Assembly (NCBI GenBank): GCA_037140955.1
Contig: JBAXDL010000002.1
Coordinates: 28,176-92,175, forward strand
Length of the DNA: 64,000 nucleotides
Direction: 5' to 3'
From: a bacterium
GTDB taxonomy: Bacteria; Patescibacteriota; Minisyncoccia; Moranbacterales; GWC2-37-73
Position 1 is the first letter of the stretch; each line of letters opens with the position of its first letter. A model generated the notes under the pieces. That model saw only the letters and a list, made by a program, of their open reading frames with translations. It was not told where the DNA came from and searched no databases. This document shows positions 14,350 to 64,000 of this stretch, piece by piece. The position numbers and the translations under genes were made by a program.

Positions 14350-15612
14350 CTAGTGGACCGCGCAGCTGATACATGGGTCGTAGGCACGAATGAAAGCGCG
14401 CATTTTTCGTTCCATGGCTTTTTCGTCTTTGTCCAAAATTCCAGGAATAAAGGCGGCTATGTCATCTTCCAGATGTGTCAAAACTTGAGCTGTTGGAGTG
14501 ATGATATTTGCATTTTTGATATACCCTTTTGCATCAATATCAACCCAATAATACAAGGTTCCGCGTGGAGCTTCAATGGCAGCAGCAGCCGACCCCTCAC
14601 GCACAGTATATTCCTTTGTGATTGCATTTTCAAGGTTTTCATGTGTAAGCTCTTTGAGCAAGCGAATTGAATCCTCAATGCAATGCACAACCTCCACCAT
14701 TTGATATATAACATTGTGAAATGGATTATAGTCTGGCAAATTAAATTCCAAACTTTTCAGATATTTTTGAGCAGCAGGACTCAATTGTTCGTGATTATTG
14801 TTAATTCTGGCAATAGCGCCAATCATATAACTTGTTTTTCCATCACGTTCAACTCTCTTGATGACCTCCTTTGGACGTTGAAATTCATGAAAACTTTCTT
14901 CAAATTTTTGAGCACTAACATTCAATCCTTTGTTTGAAATAACATCACCCTCGCAAATTGCATATTCACCTTTTGTGCGAAGACAAACATATTCAGTTGG
15001 ACGAGAAAAATTTGGAACTTTAATTGTTTTGAAAAATGCTGCCAATTCCAAGGCTATTGGCAAAATCTCCTCCCCATTGGCAATAAGCTTTTGCAATTGA
15101 TCAACTGTTGGAACTTTTTTGAAACCACCAACTTCATTTGTGAGAGAATGAACGACTCGGCCACCAAGAGTTTTGACAATAGCCATGCCATATTCACGAA
15201 TTTTCACCGCCTTGATTGTTTCTTCGGGATAGGCTTTGATCAAATCCAAGTCATTTTCAATGTCCAAAAAATCTGCCAATGACAAAAAGAAAAGATGCAG
15301 CGCGTGAGAATGAATAAATTGAGCATGCTCCAAAACTTTTCGCATTTTTATTGTTTCTGGTGTGACCTCAACCTTCATTGCATTTTCAATGGCCTTGATT
15401 GCTGTCAGATTGTGCACAATTGGACAAATACCACAAATTCGCTGGGCGATTGTTGGCATGTCTTTGTAATTTCGGCCAACCAAAATCCCTTCAATCAAGC
15501 GAATTCCCTCTTGCACTTCAAATTTGGCTGATTTCACATCGCCCTTGATAACACTAGCCATAAAGCCAGTATGTCCTTCAATTTTTGCAATGTGATTTAT
15601 TTTTATATTCAT
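14350..15612 (-). CDS. [NiFe]-hydrogenase large subunit, group 3 type; ends exactly at the C-terminal His
   Basis: N-terminal RICGICPIVH (L1 motif). The C-terminal DPCISCAVH is immediately followed by the stop, so there is no cleavable extension. 420 aa. Confidence 0.9.
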   Translation of the reverse strand: MNIKINHIAKIEGHTGFMASVIKGDVKSAKFEVQEGIRLIEGILVGRNYKDMPTIAQRICGICPIVHNLTAIKAIENAMKVEVTPETIKMRKVLEHAQFIHSHALHLFFLSLADFLDIENDLDLIKAYPEETIKAVKIREYGMAIVKTLGGRVVHSLTNEVGGFKKVPTVDQLQKLIANGEEILPIALELAAFFKTIKVPNFSRPTEYVCLRTKGEYAICEGDVISNKGLNVSAQKFEESFHEFQRPKEVIKRVERDGKTSYMIGAIARINNNHEQLSPAAQKYLKSLEFNLPDYNPFHNVIYQMVEVVHCIEDSIRLLKELTHENLENAITKEYTVREGSAAAAIEAPRGTLYYWVDIDAKGYIKNANIITPTAQVLTHLEDDIAAFIPGILDKDEKAMERKMRAFIRAYDPCISCAVH

Positions 15613-15758
15613 AGATTTTTTATGTTTAATATTTTTGTAAATAGTATGTGAAAATATGTTTTTATTTTTGCGCTTAAAACAAGATTCCTTGGTTGTTATT
15701 TCGAAAGTTGCAATTGTTTTTCCGCGCCAAAAATAAAAATATATTTGAACAATCTAAC

Positions 15759-16550
15759 CTATCCCTTGTGCTCCCCTTCCCATTTCTCAACATCATCACG
15801 AAGACCAAAAATCTCAGTAGTGTTTTCAAATTCTTCATCTGTCATCATGTTTTTGAGCGCCATCTTCATTGATTTGACATTAGCAGTTGGACGCAGACCG
15901 CGACAACCTTGGCATCCCATGCGAGAACTAGGGCAAACGGCCTCACATCCACCCAGAATCATTGGACCAAAGCAAGGCTTTTTGTCCAAAAGCAAACAAC
16001 GATTTCCTTGCTCTTTGCACTGCACACAAACTGGACTGTCAGGAATTGTTGGCAAAGCAGTGCCATCCTTCACGTTTGCTAGCAATATCGGAAAATATGC
16101 CAAAAATTCTTCTCCTGTGATTGGACAACCAGGGAAAGTAAAATCAACCTTCACAAAATTATTAACTTCTTTGATTTCTTCATTCTCAATTCCTTGCATG
16201 TATTTGTACACATGCTTGATGGTGTTTTTTCCTTCTTGATAATTTTTAATCTCTGGCACACCACCCATGGCAGCGCAGTTTCCAATCACCACCAACAATT
16301 TGCTGCGTTTTCGAAGCTCCAAGAGAGTTTTGATGTTTGCTTTGGTGGCAGGATTTCCCTCCACAAAGGCAATGTCCAAATCAACACCTGGATCTTCCAA
16401 ATCCTCCAGCAAACGAAAATCAACCATCTCAACTTGCGCCACAGCTTCCAAAAATTTGACACCCAAATCCAAAAGCACAAATTGACACCCTTCGCATGAT
16501 GTCAAAGAAACAATAGCAATTTTTGGTTTTTTCACTTCTTGATTTTCCAT
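15759..16550 (-). CDS. [NiFe]-hydrogenase small subunit, group 3 (delta-type)
   Basis: KIAIVSLTSCEGCQ is the group-3 small-subunit N-terminal motif. Also GNCAAMGG and multiple Cys clusters (CVQCKEQGNRC, CEAVCPSSRMGCQGC) for FeS clusters. Confidence 0.85.
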   Translation of the reverse strand: MENQEVKKPKIAIVSLTSCEGCQFVLLDLGVKFLEAVAQVEMVDFRLLEDLEDPGVDLDIAFVEGNPATKANIKTLLELRKRSKLLVVIGNCAAMGGVPEIKNYQEGKNTIKHVYKYMQGIENEEIKEVNNFVKVDFTFPGCPITGEEFLAYFPILLANVKDGTALPTIPDSPVCVQCKEQGNRCLLLDKKPCFGPMILGGCEAVCPSSRMGCQGCRGLRPTANVKSMKMALKNMMTDEEFENTTEIFGLRDDVEKWEGEHKG

Positions 16551-57407: not shown

Positions 57408-58109
57408 TTAGTTATTTTCCCTAATTCCACATATTTTAAAGTTTTTTTCTATTTTTTCCTTTATCTTGGCTAAATCTATTTTTTTGTTTAGTGACACTGT
57501 GCGCAAATTTTGATCAAGAATTACTCCGTCTCTATATTCTTGCAAATAATATGCATCAGCACCATTGATCCATTTGGCAATTTTTTTAAAATCTTCTTCA
57601 TTGTGAATCCCAGGAACAACAGTGGTGCGAAACTCGTAGGCCAAGTCACTTTCCATGATCAATTTCACACTTAACTTTATTTTTTCAATATCAACATTAA
57701 GTCCAACAGTCTTACTGTAATTTTCTGGAGAATTTTTAATATCCATGGCAATAAAATCCACCAATTTTTCATCAATAACCTTTTTCAAAACTTCTGGCCG
57801 GCTGCCATTAGAATCAAGCTTAACTTTAAAACCAAGATCTTTGATTTTTTTGATAAATGGAATAATATCACTTTGAATAGTTGGCTCTCCCCCAGTAATA
57901 CAAACTCCTTCCAATTTTCCAATACGTTTTTTCAAATGCTCAAAAAATTCTTTTTCCAATTCATTTGGATACGGAAATTGAGACTGAAGGACAAGTTCTG
58001 GATTATGACAAAAGCCACAACGAAAACTGCAACCAACAGTGAAAACCGTGGTTGCAATTGTTCCTGGAAAGTCTATTAGGGTTAGTTTTTGATAACCACC
58101 AATGCGCAT
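57408..58109 (-). CDS. nrdG: Anaerobic ribonucleoside-triphosphate reductase activating protein (radical SAM)
   Basis: CSFRCGFCHN (CxxxCxxC), ...GVCITGGEP... Confidence 0.85.
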   Translation of the reverse strand: MRIGGYQKLTLIDFPGTIATTVFTVGCSFRCGFCHNPELVLQSQFPYPNELEKEFFEHLKKRIGKLEGVCITGGEPTIQSDIIPFIKKIKDLGFKVKLDSNGSRPEVLKKVIDEKLVDFIAMDIKNSPENYSKTVGLNVDIEKIKLSVKLIMESDLAYEFRTTVVPGIHNEEDFKKIAKWINGADAYYLQEYRDGVILDQNLRTVSLNKKIDLAKIKEKIEKNFKICGIRENN

Positions 58110-58279: not shown

Positions 58280-58546
58280 TTAGCAAGAAACACAGGCGCC
58301 TTGCTCAACCATATATTCTGCGCGGTCTCCAAACTCTGCCTGCTTGCCCTTGTTCCATTGAGAAATTGGGCGAATATACCCAACCACACGAGAATAAACT
58401 TCTGTTGCTTGAAAATTTCGAAGCACTGAATCTTTTTGATGACAAGACTTGCATTTAGCAAAGGTTTCTTTGCCGACAGAATATGGCATATATTCTTCAT
58501 TGTGCTCTAGGCTTTTTTGACAATCATGACATGTGTGTTTTTTCAT
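58280..58546 (-). CDS. Standalone NrdD-C-terminal-like mini-protein: Zn-ribbon + glycyl-radical motif (candidate spare-part for NrdD)
   Basis: CHDC...CKSC, then TEVYSRVVGYIRPISQWNKGKQAEFGDRAEY. 29 of 31 residues match the NrdD C-terminus TEVYSRVVGYIRPVEQWNKGKQAEFGDRKEY. The DNA is also similar (58330-58420 versus 58835-58925). Confidence 0.7.
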   Translation of the reverse strand: MKKHTCHDCQKSLEHNEEYMPYSVGKETFAKCKSCHQKDSVLRNFQATEVYSRVVGYIRPISQWNKGKQAEFGDRAEYMVEQGACVSC

Positions 58547-58779: not shown

Positions 58780-60975
58780 TTATTTTTTCTCCGCACAAGC
58801 AACTTCGCATTTTCCATTTTCATATTCCTTGCGATCTCCAAATTCAGCCTGCTTTCCTTTGTTCCATTGTTCAACGGGGCGAATATACCCAACCACGCGA
58901 GAATAAACTTCGGTTTTTTGTTCAATAACACACTTTGGACAAACTGGTTGTTCGCCGTTGATATATCCATGCACCGGACAAATACTGAAAGTTGGAGAAA
59001 GCGTGAAATATGGCAAAGAATAATTTTCCGCAATCTTTCTGACCAGATTTTTCACCATTTCAATGTCCCAAATTCTTTCCCCCAAGAATCCATGAAGCAC
59101 CGTTCCTCCTGTATATTTTGTTTGCATTTTTTCCTGCAAATCTAAAGCCTCAAAAATATCTTCTGTGAAGTGAACTGGCAATTGTGAAGAATTGGTATAA
59201 TATGGCTCTGCACCTTTTGTTCGAACCGCCACATTGTTTGCAAAAATAATTTCTGGATATTTTTCACGATCCTTTCTGGCCAAGCGATATGATGTTCCTT
59301 CAGCTGGAGTTGCTTCAAGATTGTACATGCTGCCAGTTTCCTCTTGAAATTTGAGCATTTTCTCTCGCATATGCACCAAAATTTCCTCTCCCAAATCCTG
59401 TCCTTCTTTGGTGGTAATATCCTTTCCAATTAAATTTACCAAAGCCTCATTTAATCCAACCAAGCCAATGGTTGAAAAATGATTTGACCAATAAGACCCC
59501 TGACGCATTTTGATCGCATCTAAATAAAATTTGGTGTATGGATATAATCCTTTTTCTGTTAGACTTTCTACTAATTTTCTTTTTGTATCAAGACTTTCCT
59601 TGGCCACATCCATCAATGAATCAAGTTGCACAAAAAATTCTTTTTTGTTTTTTGCGGCATAACCAATACGTGGCATGTTTATTGTTACCACCCCAATTGA
59701 GCCAGTTAGTGGATTTGCGCCAAAGAGTCCTCCACCTCGTTTGCGCAATTCTCGATTGTCCAAACGAAGACGACAGCACATAGAACGAGCATCATCAGGA
59801 TCCATGTCTGAGTTAACAAAGTTTGCAAAATATGGAATGCCATACTTTGCTGTCATTTCCCAAACAGCATCAAAGCGCTTGTCACTCCAATCAAAATCTT
59901 TGGCAATGTTGTATGTCGGAATTGGGAAAGTGAAGATTCGCCCGCTAGCATCACCTTCAGTCATCACCTCAGCAAAGGCGCGATTGATCATGTTCATTTC
60001 ATCTTGAAATTCACCATAAGTTTCTTTTTGTGGAACCCCACCAATGATGACAGCTTCTTTTGCAAGCATTCCTGGTGCGGTCATGTCCATAGTGATGTTT
60101 GAAAATGGTGTTTGAAATCCCACGCGCGTTGAAACATTCATATTGAAAACAAAAGATTGAATTTCTTGTTTAACTTGCTCATAGGTCAATTTGTCATAGC
60201 GCACAAATGGAGCAAGAAGTGTGTCAAAATTTGAAAAAGCTTGCGCTCCAGCAACCTCACCCTGCAAAGTATAAATGAAATTTACCATTTGCCCAAGAAT
60301 TGAACCAAGATGTTTTGCTGGCTTGCAGGCAACCTTTCCAGGCACACCAGTAAATCCCCTGCGAAGCAAATCTTGCAAATCCCAACCACAACAATAGGCA
60401 GCAACCAGCTGCAAATCATGAATGTGAATATCACCACTCTCATTGGCAGATCGAATTTCCTTAGAATAAACACGATTCATCCAATATTTAGAACTAACGA
60501 TTGAAGCGATGTAATTGTTAAGGCCTTGCAAAGAGTATGCCATGTTTGCGTTCTCTTTTACTTGCCAATCTAATTCTTGAATATATTTATCCACTAAACT
60601 TACAGCCTCATCCAGAGAGTGTTCTGTTTCGCGAATTTTTCGATGCTGTTCTCGATACAAAATATATGCCTTGGCAGTTTCCTCATAATCCAAAACCATC
60701 AGCACACGCTCAACCAAATCTTGCAATTGTTCAATTGCTGGAATTTCACCCTTTTTAAAATTTTTGTTCAGCAATTGCACAACTTTGTCAGCAACTTTTT
60801 TGGCATCATCCTTTGTTCCTTCTTTTGTTATTAAAAATGCTCGCTCAACCGCAACTGCAATCTTTTTCTGGTCAAAAGGCACAACCACTCCACTTCTCTT
60901 TACAATCTTTTTCACCAAATTCACAACTTTTTTCTTTTCAATCTTTTTTTCTTCCACCTTCTTTTGATTTTTCAT
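58780..60975 (-). CDS. nrdD: Anaerobic ribonucleoside-triphosphate reductase (class III) with N-terminal ATP-cone
   Basis: ATP-cone VVKRSGVVVPFDQKKIAVAVERAF. C-terminal glycyl-radical motif SRVVGYIRP preceded by a Cys cluster CPVHG...CPKC. 731 aa. Confidence 0.9.
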   Translation of the reverse strand: MKNQKKVEEKKIEKKKVVNLVKKIVKRSGVVVPFDQKKIAVAVERAFLITKEGTKDDAKKVADKVVQLLNKNFKKGEIPAIEQLQDLVERVLMVLDYEETAKAYILYREQHRKIRETEHSLDEAVSLVDKYIQELDWQVKENANMAYSLQGLNNYIASIVSSKYWMNRVYSKEIRSANESGDIHIHDLQLVAAYCCGWDLQDLLRRGFTGVPGKVACKPAKHLGSILGQMVNFIYTLQGEVAGAQAFSNFDTLLAPFVRYDKLTYEQVKQEIQSFVFNMNVSTRVGFQTPFSNITMDMTAPGMLAKEAVIIGGVPQKETYGEFQDEMNMINRAFAEVMTEGDASGRIFTFPIPTYNIAKDFDWSDKRFDAVWEMTAKYGIPYFANFVNSDMDPDDARSMCCRLRLDNRELRKRGGGLFGANPLTGSIGVVTINMPRIGYAAKNKKEFFVQLDSLMDVAKESLDTKRKLVESLTEKGLYPYTKFYLDAIKMRQGSYWSNHFSTIGLVGLNEALVNLIGKDITTKEGQDLGEEILVHMREKMLKFQEETGSMYNLEATPAEGTSYRLARKDREKYPEIIFANNVAVRTKGAEPYYTNSSQLPVHFTEDIFEALDLQEKMQTKYTGGTVLHGFLGERIWDIEMVKNLVRKIAENYSLPYFTLSPTFSICPVHGYINGEQPVCPKCVIEQKTEVYSRVVGYIRPVEQWNKGKQAEFGDRKEYENGKCEVACAEKK

Positions 60976-61632: not shown

Positions 61633-61984
61633 GTGTTTATTAAATTTCCAATTTCCAACTTTAAATTTTCAATGAAATTCAAAATTATAAATTCAAATTT
61701 CCAATTTAATTTTTAATTTTTTTGTTTTTGATTTTTTATCGCAAATGCAACAAAAAAAGACATTACAATAAAACTTGACAACTTTTATTTTTCACTTTTT
61801 TTGAAACTTGACTTTTTTGATTTTTGTGTACTTTTATACTACATGTTGTGTATTACTAGTTCATTATACCACAAGCCAATAATATGCCAAGCATCCCATT
61901 TTAAGCTATTTTTCAAAGTTATGCACAGAAAAAACTCAAAAAAAACAACCCATTTCCATGAATTGTTTTTTTGATTTTAATTTT

Positions 61985-63706
61985 TTACAAGGCTGTTTCT
62001 TGCCATTTTTGAATTGAAATTGGAAGTGGACAATACAATGTTTCACTCGTAGAAGAGCAAGGCACACCACAGTCTGCATTTGCTGGATACGTTGTTCCAC
62101 CACCGCATGTAGTATCCGTTTTAGCACACATTGGTTTAGCAGTTGTAATTGTTTTTCCTGCTTTATCAGTAGTATTGCAAACAGCGCCAGTTGAAGTCAT
62201 AGGACAAATATATGAATATACTGGAATGCAAGTCTTTTTTGCCGTGCAACTTGCTGGAGAACCACCGCTTTTTCCGTTGCATGTCCAAGACCAAGGTCCA
62301 GATCCTGATACTGCTGGAGTTGAACCATCACCACAGAGACCAACAGGATCAGCTGAAGAAGGAGGGGAAAAAAGATAATCATTGCCTGGATTTGAATATG
62401 AACCACAAACTCCATCTACCGGCGAATTTATCCCAACTGTGACACTTTGATTAACAATGGAAATATTCGATGAATTCAAACACTCCATATTGTAAGTTGT
62501 TGGTACTGTTATGCCACTAAAAATACTTGAACCAGCTGCTGGATCAGGAGCCCAGCCGAGTATTGAACCATAACTATCTATAAACCTACAAGAGGCAGTA
62601 TTGGTTGATAACCATGAAATTGTCGAAGACCCTCCCTGATCAACACTAGTCGGAGACGCTGTCAATGAAAGTGTTGGAGTAGTGCAAGATGAATAATCAA
62701 GAGTTGCAAGTGAACCAGTACCACTATGACAAGTGCAGTCAACAACATAACCAATACCTGGTGGATCTAGAAAGGTTGCGCAGCTAGCATCTGCAGATTC
62801 ATATGGTGCAGCAACCTTAGTATTGTTGTACAAACTAGAACATCCTACCCCACAAGTATACTTTTTGTTGGCAGAGCAAGAGGTTCCACTGCAGGTCCAG
62901 GACCAAGGTCCAGATCCTGATACCGCTGAAGCTGTGCCAGATGAACAAAAGTTGGCAGTTGGAGCAGAGAGGAAATATTGACCATTTGATGAGCCGCATC
63001 CTGATTGAGTTGCAGAGCAACTTGCAGCTGCTCCCCCATATTGTCCAAGGCAACTCCAAGACCAAGCACCAGAAGCTGAAGCTGTGCCAGCTTGGCAAAG
63101 ATTAGAGGTTGGAGCTGACGGGAATGATTGACCATTAGCAGAACCACAGACACCAGGAATTGGGTCATGACACTCACCACCGCCAGAACTAATAGTGCCA
63201 TTATCGCATGACATATAAGTAAAGCCAACATTTGAATTTATAGCATTATCAAATTTTCCAGAAAAATTATAGGCCACTTCCATATTTAAGATAACACCAC
63301 ATTGTTTTGGGTTATCAGATGTTCCCCAATAAGAAGAATAGAAAAAACAATTCCTATTTGCATAGCAAGATGCATCTGAACCACCATTTTTTCCAGCACA
63401 TGTCCAATTCCATGTTCCAGCAAAAGAAACTGGTACCCATGAACCATCTCCACAAAGATTTGAACCTGGTGAATTTAAAAATGATCCACCATGTGATGAG
63501 CCACAAGAACCATTGATTTTTTCATAAGCAATACATGCAGTTTCATTGCTTGGACTAGCTACTGTTTTACATCCCCATTTCCATGCGCCAGCAGGAGAAC
63601 CTGCGACATATGAAACAGCAGTACTTATCTTACTTCCAACAGCACAAAATTCTTGACCCATGATTGGAATTGAAGTTCTCATTGTCCCATCAGCTGAACC
63701 ACACAC
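61985..63706 (-). CDS. Large secreted Cys/Gly/Ser-rich protein built from a roughly 48-aa repeated module (C-terminal part)
   Basis: Repeated module CGS.NGQ.F.SAPT.NLC..GTASA.SG.GPWSW.C.G..GG.AASC.A, at least five copies. Confidence 0.5.
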   Translation of the reverse strand: MCGSADGTMRTSIPIMGQEFCAVGSKISTAVSYVAGSPAGAWKWGCKTVASPSNETACIAYEKINGSCGSSHGGSFLNSPGSNLCGDGSWVPVSFAGTWNWTCAGKNGGSDASCYANRNCFFYSSYWGTSDNPKQCGVILNMEVAYNFSGKFDNAINSNVGFTYMSCDNGTISSGGGECHDPIPGVCGSANGQSFPSAPTSNLCQAGTASASGAWSWSCLGQYGGAAASCSATQSGCGSSNGQYFLSAPTANFCSSGTASAVSGSGPWSWTCSGTSCSANKKYTCGVGCSSLYNNTKVAAPYESADASCATFLDPPGIGYVVDCTCHSGTGSLATLDYSSCTTPTLSLTASPTSVDQGGSSTISWLSTNTASCRFIDSYGSILGWAPDPAAGSSIFSGITVPTTYNMECLNSSNISIVNQSVTVGINSPVDGVCGSYSNPGNDYLFSPPSSADPVGLCGDGSTPAVSGSGPWSWTCNGKSGGSPASCTAKKTCIPVYSYICPMTSTGAVCNTTDKAGKTITTAKPMCAKTDTTCGGGTTYPANADCGVPCSSTSETLYCPLPISIQKWQETAL

Positions 63707-64000
63707 TCCCGATGGAACAAGACATATTGAACCAGAAAGGGTTCCACCAGAAGGACATGAAAATCAATTGGAAGTTTTGCTTGTGGGTTATAGCAATCAG
63801 CTCCACCACTCATGGGATAACTTATTGCTAGCTCTGGTATTGTACACATAAATTGCCTGTGACATATTGTGAAGCAGTTATTTCCCTGTATTGTCATTCC
63901 CCTATAATTTCCAAGACCACATGATCCAATATTAACAGAACAAGATGGAGTTGCATCATAAGCCTTAACACTTCTAGAGTCAAAAATCCCAAACAATATT
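63679..64000 (-). CDS. Upstream continuation of the same Cys-rich gene in another frame (frameshift or fragment); runs off the window end
   Basis: Cys-rich composition up to about 63780. It overlaps the downstream ORF by 28 nt in a different frame. Confidence 0.3.
   Translation of the reverse strand, partial: ILFGIFDSRSVKAYDATPSCSVNIGSCGLGNYRGMTIQGNNCFTICHRQFMCTIPELAISYPMSGGADCYNPQAKLPIDFHVLLVEPFLVQYVLFHRECVVQLMGQ

Follow-up and report, generated by a model that had tools for sequence, protein, structure and literature searches.

Patescibacteria and DPANN archaea rely on contact with host cells, and most of their surface proteins are annotated as 'hypothetical'. The described domains with which the element reported here can be compared are the PKD, Big and FN3 domains, the thrombospondin type-1 repeat and small Cys-containing carbohydrate-binding modules (CBMs). 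The thrombospondin type-1 repeat is a three-stranded domain of ~55-60 residues with six Cys residues and a WSxWSxC motif. At the C-terminus of secreted proteins, all sortase- and exosortase-type signals known to us consist of a motif, which is followed by a hydrophobic helix and then a basic tail. In this study, we analyzed a stretch of 64,000 nucleotides (contig JBAXDL010000002.1 of assembly GCA_037140955.1, positions 28,176 to 92,175; hereafter, the window) from a Moranbacteria-like Patescibacteria genome. The region at the end of the window, on the minus strand, is probably the body of one gene of ~2.05 kb (682 codons after frame joining). Its product would be a Sec-exported, disulfide-rich cell-surface protein with five modules of 54 residues, and its coding sequence would be frameshifted by one base at a run of four T residues (T4 run).

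On the minus strand, frame 0 is open from position 63763 to the stop codon at 61985-61987. This main open frame (61985-63763; 592 codons and the stop codon) contains the module-bearing body of the protein. The composition of the 592-codon open reading frame (ORF) is 16.6% Ser, 12.7% Gly, 9.3% Thr, 8.8% Ala and 7.1% Cys (42 Cys residues), and Ser, Gly, Thr and Ala together account for 47%. An earlier description made from the letters alone (the sequence-only reading) had called the product a secreted protein rich in Cys, Gly and Ser, and the richness in these residues agrees with the composition. It had also proposed at least five tandem modules of roughly 48 residues, with four Cys residues each and an invariant GPWSW sequence. 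We seeded a profile with the five repeats seen by eye, which gave 756 copies in the 120 best database homologues, and rebuilt it from 695 full-length copies. It should be mentioned that this profile is dominated by proteins from other organisms and that the E-values given for single copies are domain E-values. With this profile, five significant copies were found (E 2e-9 to 2e-21). All five match over the full length of the profile and possess Cys at positions 4, 21, 39 and 50 and Trp at position 37. Thus, the number of modules and their four Cys residues were confirmed. The length had to be corrected: the consensus has 54 residues and the copies here have 48-64. Likewise, GPWSW is present only in copies 4 and 5, and the other copies have GAWKWGC, GTWNWTC or GAWSWSC.

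Copy 1 (63518-63709; residues 19-82 of the ORF, E 2e-9) is divergent and has two insertions (GVCGSADGT...GAWKWGC...ACIAYEK). Copy 2 (63353-63514; residues 84-137, E 2e-21) has the full 54 residues, NGSCGSSHGGSFLNSPGSNLCGDGSWVPVSFAGTWNWTCAGKNGGSDASCYANR. Copies 3 (63005-63157; residues 203-253, E 4.5e-21) and 4 (62861-63004; residues 254-301, E 8e-20) follow, and copy 4 has a shortened last loop (..WSWTCSGTSCSANKK). This short form, followed by KKY-x-C, is also found in the paralogues from the same genome and in other Patescibacteria proteins. Copy 5 (62234-62416; residues 450-510, E 1e-17) has two small insertions. All are on the minus strand. The copies are thus not one tandem array but two adjacent pairs and a fifth copy that stands alone, and ~65 and ~148 residues of other Cys-containing sequence lie between. 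Because the pairwise identity between the five copies is 35-71%, we regard them as old duplications rather than a low-complexity artefact. In the profile search, the module was absent from every other ORF of the window.

The profile consensus is NGVCGSANGKSFSSAPTTNLCSAGTASAVSGSGPWTWTCAGSNGGTTASCSANK (54 residues). The Cys residues are arranged as C-x16-C-x17-C-x10-C, and a W-x-W-x-C strand is also characteristic. Across 1,702 copies, C4, C21, W37, C39 and C50 are invariant, and W35 and P34 are present in 91% and 78%, respectively. All four Cys residues are found in 1,701 of the 1,702 full-length copies, and two disulfides per module are presumed from this pattern. Conserved residues at turns are G5, P16, L20, G24, G41, N43, G44 and G45, and the non-conserved positions are dominated by Ser, Thr, Asn, Gly and Ala. 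The conserved positions are all Cys, Trp, Gly, Pro, Asn, Leu or Ala, and a polar or charged site is not among them. The AlphaFold2 model of copy 2 is all-beta, with a predicted local distance difference test score (pLDDT) of 94.5. In this model, W35, W37 and C39 are at i, i+2 and i+4 of a predicted strand (34-40), and A48, C50 and A52 are at the same spacing in another (48-53). Because every second residue of a strand points in the same direction, the Trp pair should face one side together with Cys39. The predicted structure thus suggests that both Trp residues most likely lie with the disulfides in the core rather than forming a ligand platform.

The sequence-only reading did not recognize the module, and the curated resources gave the same answer. 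At E<=1, no family of Pfam-A 2025 or NCBIfam r20 matches the module, whether the query, homologues carrying 11-14 copies or a consensus dimer is searched. The profile search against PDB sequences yielded only chance matches (best E 1.1), and the PDB fold search gave no match to the module. Among the papers of the library searched with the motif strings of the module, none was relevant, and a keyword search for cysteine-rich Patescibacteria surface repeats was unproductive. Yet among 1.84 billion cluster representatives searched with HMMER, 5,663 proteins carry the module at E<=1e-3, 3,381 at E<=1e-10 and 897 at E<=1e-30. We therefore assign the module to none of the named families. It belongs to a large extracytoplasmic family that has no name and is defined by the profile, the Cys pattern and the export context.

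In 227 module proteins scanned with hmmsearch, the median number of copies is 7 and the maximum is 33; in the search of representatives, up to 45 matched stretches occurred in one protein. The gaps between neighboring copies are 10 residues or shorter in 80%. Export-type N-termini were found in 170 of these 227 proteins (158 Sec-like, nine of the bacterial type IV pilin type and three of the archaeal class III type), and the remainder are mostly fragments. The taxonomic spread was scanned in one genome per GTDB species with the pattern [VY][SAG]G[ST]GPWSW, so that the result is a sample and not a census. Within this pattern-limited scan, the module was found in Patescibacteria (Paceibacterota, Saccharibacteria, Magasanikbacteria, Yonathbacteria, Staskawiczbacteria and Peribacteria), including the isolate Minisyncoccus archaeiphilus, and in DPANN archaea (Micrarchaeia and Pacearchaeota). 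It was also found in Alpha-, Beta- and Gammaproteobacteria, including the isolate Thiobaca trueperi DSM 13587, in Geobacter, Syntrophobacteraceae and Smithellaceae (Desulfobacterota), and in Nitrospirota, Acidobacteriaceae, Bdellovibrionota and Micavibrio. Furthermore, a phage protein of 518 residues (BFVD A0A6J5SE33, uncultured Caudovirales phage) carries the module (40% identity, TM 0.77), and two IMG/VR contigs match it, one of which (L084, 527-688) is an uncultivated virus genome (UViG) of 150 kb. Because a phage protein and a large viral contig carry the module, it is not confined to cellular surface proteins. A tblastn search of plasmid and phage records with the consensus dimer gave no match, to which the low-complexity filter may contribute.

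Partner domains in the module proteins include OmpA-like anchors, SLH, GH5, GH16, GH26, CE4 deacetylase, peptidase C1, propellers (NHL, Kelch and YVTN), PKD, discoidin and RHS domains, and also DUF2341, DUF4082, Big_7 and fn3. By reading of its sequence, the Thiobaca module protein also seems to contain a beta-helix and FG-GAP-like repeats. To judge from the N-termini and the partner domains, the module behaves as a general-purpose extracytoplasmic building block.

Each module would be a small bead stapled by two disulfides. The conserved Cys residues, the Trp pair and the Gly/Pro/Asn turns would form the core of the bead, and variable residues, with many Ser, Thr and Asn among them, would occupy the exposed positions. 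Several beads in a row could form a stiff stalk, resistant to proteases and shear, which extends from the envelope or from pili and displays variable loops or further domains that serve in attachment to host cells or polymers. If binding is specific at all, the variable loops or the partner domains would determine it. We favor a disulfide-stapled bead because the surface is variable, conserved polar or charged sites are absent, linkers are short and copy numbers are high. In Paceibacteria, highly expressed secreted proteins with adhesion-type domains have been proposed to act in host attachment (PMC10936435). That paper on Minisyncoccus/Paceibacteria parasitism does not mention the module. We tentatively propose, as an idea that we would not yet expect to hold, that the module is an undescribed fold used as a shared 'attachment bead' on the cell surfaces and type IV-like pili of cell-attached organisms (Patescibacteria, DPANN, Micavibrio and Bdellovibrionota) and exchanged across the bacteria-archaea boundary. 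In Patescibacteria, members might perhaps be retained or processed via a helix-free C-terminal tag, L-P-x-W-x-E-[VI]-x-P-COOH.

The main rival to the structural bead is a CBM-like module, whose copies would bind polysaccharides of the host or substrate via their aromatic residues and make the protein a multivalent lectin. Fusions to GH5 cellulase, GH16, GH26, CE4 deacetylase, discoidin and DUF4082, the two near-invariant Trp residues, and the name of the module-bearing phage protein (chitobiase C-terminal domain protein) speak for this idea. However, on the predicted strand the Trp pair lies at i and i+2 with Cys39, which suggests a position in the core, and no conserved polar or charged residue is available for a ligand site. 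In addition, most members carry many copies (median 7, up to 33) with no enzyme attached, as PKD or Big spacers do, and no CBM family in Pfam or CBM structure in PDB matches the module. We therefore judge a carbohydrate-binding function of the module itself to be unlikely.

The part upstream of the window was taken from L001, the same contig from another assembly (ENA k141_511937), which has 0 mismatches to the window over the 12,016 bp shared. The sequence-only reading had suggested that the coding sequence continues upstream in a second frame, with a frameshift, and runs off the window. This second frame is indeed open at 63679-63999, up to the window end, and the gene leaves the window: an ATG codon lies 32 nt past base 64000 (L001, 9651). 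The upstream frame begins there, just outside the window, with MKKVLLLFCFVILFGIFDSRSVKA|YDATPSC.... By inspection, MKKVLLLFCFVILFGIFDSRSVKA would be a typical Sec signal peptide: its n-region is basic, its core is hydrophobic and its cleavage-type site is V-K-A. Together with the Sec-like N-termini in 158 of the 227 module proteins, it supports the suggestion that the protein is secreted. The 5′ coding part inside the window (63764-63999, minus strand, frame 1; ..ILFGIFDSRSVKA|YDATPSCSVNIGSCGLGNYRGMTIQGNNCFTICHRQFMCTIPELAISYPMSGGADCYNPQAKLPID) encodes the last part of the signal peptide and an N-terminal region rich in Cys.

The frame-0 stop codon TGA at 63764-63766 and the frame-1 stop codon at 63679-63681 limit the frame change to 63682-63763. 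Codon log-odds were calculated with two models, one trained on this gene and one general model trained on seven other genes of the window. Within 63682-63763, frame 0 scored +32.9 bits (gene model) and +8.8 bits (general model), and frame 1 scored -43.2 and -4.7 bits, respectively. Upstream of 63763, frame 1 scored +30.1 and +7.6 bits, and both other frames were strongly negative. On the basis of the stop codons and these log-odds, the frame switch is placed at or beside the T4 run (63760-63763, minus strand; gaTTTTca), where the coding frame changes by -1. If five T residues are read, or if a -1 slip occurs on UUU, ...AKLPIDF is joined to SCPSGGTLSGSICLVPSGVCGSADG... and a gene of 682 codons is obtained, whose product reads ...AKLPIDFSCPSGGTLSGSICLVPSGVCGSADG... 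across the frame change. In the NCBI annotation, the 5′ frame is a separate ORF of 117 residues (WCI36_01665), and the downstream ORF comprises only 61985-63682 (565 residues, WCI36_01660; start MRTSIP). This annotated start lies inside module copy 1, and the first Cys and CGSADG of this copy are encoded upstream in the same frame. Thus, the coding signal changes frame and the downstream part has no export signal of its own. The codon statistics, the position of the signal peptide and the cut through module 1 at the annotated ATG all support the frameshift that the sequence-only reading had suspected.

Two paralogues from the same genome, P0002 and P0090, are intact single ORFs, each with its own signal peptide. 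P0002 has 688 residues and is 49% identical over residues 69-682 of the joined product; its alignment extends to residue 69, and is weak in that stretch. P0090 has 580 residues. We consider the break to be a recent mutation (inactivating or strain-variable) or else a consensus error and, as far as can be read from the sequence, not a case of programmed recoding. Because the 592 downstream codons contain no second lesion, a real break would have to be recent. As assembled, the sole product would be a secreted N-terminal fragment of 117 residues.

Several points weigh against the reading as one frameshifted gene for a stalk-forming surface protein. That the frames join precisely at the T4 run is an inference, and no homologue spans the junction: a search with the N-terminal 109 residues matched the ORF itself only. 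Therefore, the support for the frameshift is internal to the sequence. A sequencing error or phase variation would also be expected at a longer run than four T residues. Regarding function, the stalk or adhesin role is suggested solely by the architecture and the conservation pattern, and the glycoside hydrolase fusions would fit a carbohydrate-binding role equally well. Finally, the full-length AlphaFold2 model, which was based on an alignment of 11 sequences, has a mean pLDDT of 39.5 and lends no support to any overall shape.

Phase variation and transcriptional slippage usually depend on tracts of ~7 or more identical nucleotides. A functional frame change at this site, by programmed -1 slippage on U UUU C or by slipped-strand phase variation, would make the gene an on/off switch. 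After a -1 slip on UUUU, tRNA-Phe re-pairs perfectly and the product is the same as that from the T5 reading. Moreover, surface proteins are usual targets of phase variation, and this gene is located in a variable slot for surface-protein genes. However, no X XXY YYZ heptamer is present at the site, only U UUU C, and the fold of 96 nt downstream is not stable (z-score -0.62). Neither a slippery heptamer nor a stimulatory RNA structure was thus found there, four T residues are far below the usual tracts, and neither paralogue is frameshifted. The homology search with the N-terminal 109 residues gave no orthologue in which conservation of the T4 site could be tested. A switch of this kind appears very unlikely to us.

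Overlap of a stop codon and a start codon as ATGA is a frequent coupling arrangement. Exactly this overlap is formed by the stop of the upstream ORF and the start of the downstream ORF, and the gene callers of three sources annotate the locus as two genes, namely the secreted 117-residue peptide WCI36_01665 and the separate 565-residue WCI36_01660. However, the 565-residue product would have no signal peptide although it is built of four-Cys extracytoplasmic modules, and its ATG is within module copy 1, so that the first Cys and the CGSADG start of this copy are encoded farther upstream in the same frame. Frame 0 is open for 27 codons 5′ of this ATG with +32.9 bits, whereas the tail of the 117-residue ORF gives -43.2 bits, and each paralogue is one ORF that begins with a signal peptide of its own. 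Two separate genes are consequently a highly improbable explanation. That the ORF is a non-coding, low-complexity artefact, open by chance, can be dismissed almost entirely: the biased composition (Ser, Gly, Thr and Ala, 47%) would allow it, but the copies match a profile from proteins of other organisms with E-values down to 2e-21, homologues number in the thousands, the predicted fold of the module is confident, the intact paralogue is 49% identical over more than 600 residues and the in-frame codon bias is strong.

We return to the single, interrupted gene and the remaining parts of its product. The insert between copies 2 and 3 (63158-63352, 65 residues, four Cys) belongs to no recognizable family and has low confidence in the full-length model. 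Copy 4 is followed by a Cys-rich segment, YTCGVGCSS...CTCHSGTGSLATLDYSS (62687-62860), which is conserved in both same-genome paralogues, and by a beta-rich segment of ~90 residues, TPTLSLTASPTSVDQGGSSTISWLSTNTASC... (62417-62686), which is conserved in P0002. In the latter segment, strands are predicted with low confidence; its sequence probably represents an Ig-like domain, although it has no Pfam match and the PDB sequence search reached chance level only. Behind copy 5, a C-terminal Cys-rich region (62030-62233; 9 Cys in 68 residues) is common to this protein and P0002. The extreme C-terminus PLPISIQKWQETAL (61988-62029) contains a W-x-E-x(2-4)-COOH motif, which is shared with other Patescibacteria module proteins. 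All of these segments are encoded on the minus strand.

The protein ends with ...QKWQETAL, and similar ends (...LSLPQWKEISPF, ...PLPKWTEIAP, ...NQIPWMEVTP and ...CPQWTEVIP) were observed in secreted Patescibacteria proteins. The consensus is approximately (L/I)-P-x-W-x-E-[VIS]-x-P, and a Pro often precedes the W-x-E part. The motif is present in 18 of the 227 module proteins, and in 9 of the 1,772 ORFs of all fetched loci, besides four likely chance matches. It occurs in P0002, P0090, P0019, P0050, P0085, P0111, P0131, P0178, P0189, P0198, P0204, P0223 and P0227, and also in L080 (8587-11340 and 11501-14323) and L038 (1459-2733). No NCBIfam or Pfam model covers it. Judging from its position and conservation, it may be an undescribed retention or sorting tag. 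A different extreme C-terminus, ...C(T/S)APTPPPPPSFGGACP(GP), is shared by P0014, P0015, P0017, P0026, P0048, P0052, P0095, P0103 and P0110, a subgroup of module proteins that is not Patescibacteria-like.

The gene order around the locus is ftsA-ftsZ, a gene for a secreted Cys-rich protein of 261 residues, the module gene and nrdR-nrdD-nrdG. FtsZ is encoded 1.3 kb upstream and is 82-92% identical to FtsZ of Candidatus Moranbacteria. In one relative with 92% FtsZ identity (L082, L083), nrdR directly follows ftsZ (L082, 8231-8594). In another relative (L080, 8345-15344), the slot between ftsZ and nrdR contains two paralogous secreted genes of ~900 residues with one module copy each. Here, it is occupied by two Cys-rich secreted genes (L001, 8694-12050; window 61633-64000 and upstream). 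Judged from these gene orders, the ftsZ-nrdR slot is a hot spot at which surface-protein genes are gained and lost. Therefore, a real inactivating frameshift is plausible.

In the slot of L080, at least three large secreted genes were observed, namely the two ~900-residue paralogues and a PKD protein. The 261-residue neighbor of the module gene (L001, 8796-9581; upstream of the window) has a signal peptide and a Cys-rich product with an internal duplication (QCINPDVNGVCESYFTPILFG / ECVNPDINGVCESYFTPTHFG). It also has a C-P-x-x-x-T-L...C motif, as found just before module 1 of the frameshifted gene, and has no Pfam match. Between the stop codon of the module gene and nrdR, a strong promoter-like site is present at 61863-61890 on the minus strand (TTGGCA-16-TATAAT with TG; 11 of 12 matches to the sigma-70 consensus). 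By its sequence, this putative promoter fits separate transcription of the module gene and nrdR. Minisyncoccus archaeiphilus is a cultured parasite of methanogens. In its strain PMX.108 (L049, 2516-5041 and 5535-7070), an 841-residue module protein with a Kazal-like segment is encoded directly upstream of ftsZ. That a module gene is adjacent to ftsZ in both this organism and the present one may be a coincidence.

The content of the window is otherwise ordinary for Patescibacteria, and includes SecY, EF-Tu, EF-G, ComEC, GAPDH, aldolase and a NiFe-hydrogenase-like pair. This pair (14350-16550, minus strand) comprises large-subunit-like (PF00374) and small-subunit-like (PF01058) ORFs beside glycolytic genes. 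Furthermore, an ORF of 88 residues (58280-58546, minus strand) is located between nrdD (58780-60975) and a gene for an nrdG-like activase (57408-58109). Its C-terminal 44 residues share 77% identity with the glycyl-radical C-terminus of the NrdD encoded beside it (EVYSRVVGYIRP..QWNKGKQAEFGDR; E 5e-20). It has Cys pairs before the glycyl-radical-like end and is conserved in the relative (L082, 11446-11712). GrcA (YfiD) is a spare-part glycyl-radical domain for pyruvate formate-lyase. By analogy, the 88-residue ORF looks like a stand-alone 'spare-part' domain for anaerobic ribonucleotide reductase.

The module makes up a large share of the sequence in thousands of surface proteins of the 'hypothetical' kind, among them bacterial as well as archaeal pilins. 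It has a confident predicted fold, no curated name and no structural relative among the solved structures. A definition of the family should improve the annotation of many metagenome-derived surface proteins, and the module, with its 54 residues and two presumed disulfides, is a tractable target for structural and binding studies. The ftsZ-nrdR slot shows a fast turnover of the surface repertoire among relatives whose FtsZ proteins are 92% identical. The deposited record divides one surface-protein gene into two 'hypothetical proteins', and the frameshift is mainly a matter of annotation.

Comparison with known systems shows what the locus shares with them. LPXTG/sortase, PEP-CTERM/exosortase and PGF-CTERM/archaeosortase signals resemble the W-x-E motif in being short conserved motifs near the C-terminus of secreted proteins. 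In contrast to these signals, the chain ends 2-4 residues after the W-x-E motif and no hydrophobic segment follows. Because ...QKWQETAL lacks this segment and no NCBIfam sorting domain matches it, we rejected a signal of the sortase/exosortase type. The thrombospondin type-1 repeat (PF00090) is, like the module, small and stapled by disulfides, with a Trp strand beside a Cys and a tandem arrangement in adhesive proteins. This assignment was also rejected: the module has four Cys residues and WxW instead of WxxWxxW, PF00090 does not match, and the fold comparison fails. Small Cys-containing CBMs (CBM10 and CBM5/12) are likewise short beta domains with aromatic residues and occur on glycoside hydrolases. 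The module differs from them in sequence and fold, in its far higher copy number per protein and in its aromatic residues, which apparently belong to the predicted core. Assignments as a CBM or as a PKD domain were both discarded, since neither a Pfam match nor a PDB fold match was obtained. The PKD, Big and FN3 domains differ from the module in size, disulfides, sequence and fold. However, they are also extracytoplasmic, are arranged head-to-tail with short linkers, are combined with enzymes, propellers, anchors and pilins, and (as PKD, Big_7 and fn3) occur in the same proteins as the module. Thus, they are the closest to the module in use, with a likely role as a spacer, stalk or adhesion element. 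The gene described here adds one more member to a big, undescribed family of extracytoplasmic four-Cys modules, and its tandem surface-protein modules are a variant of a familiar kind rather than a novel system.

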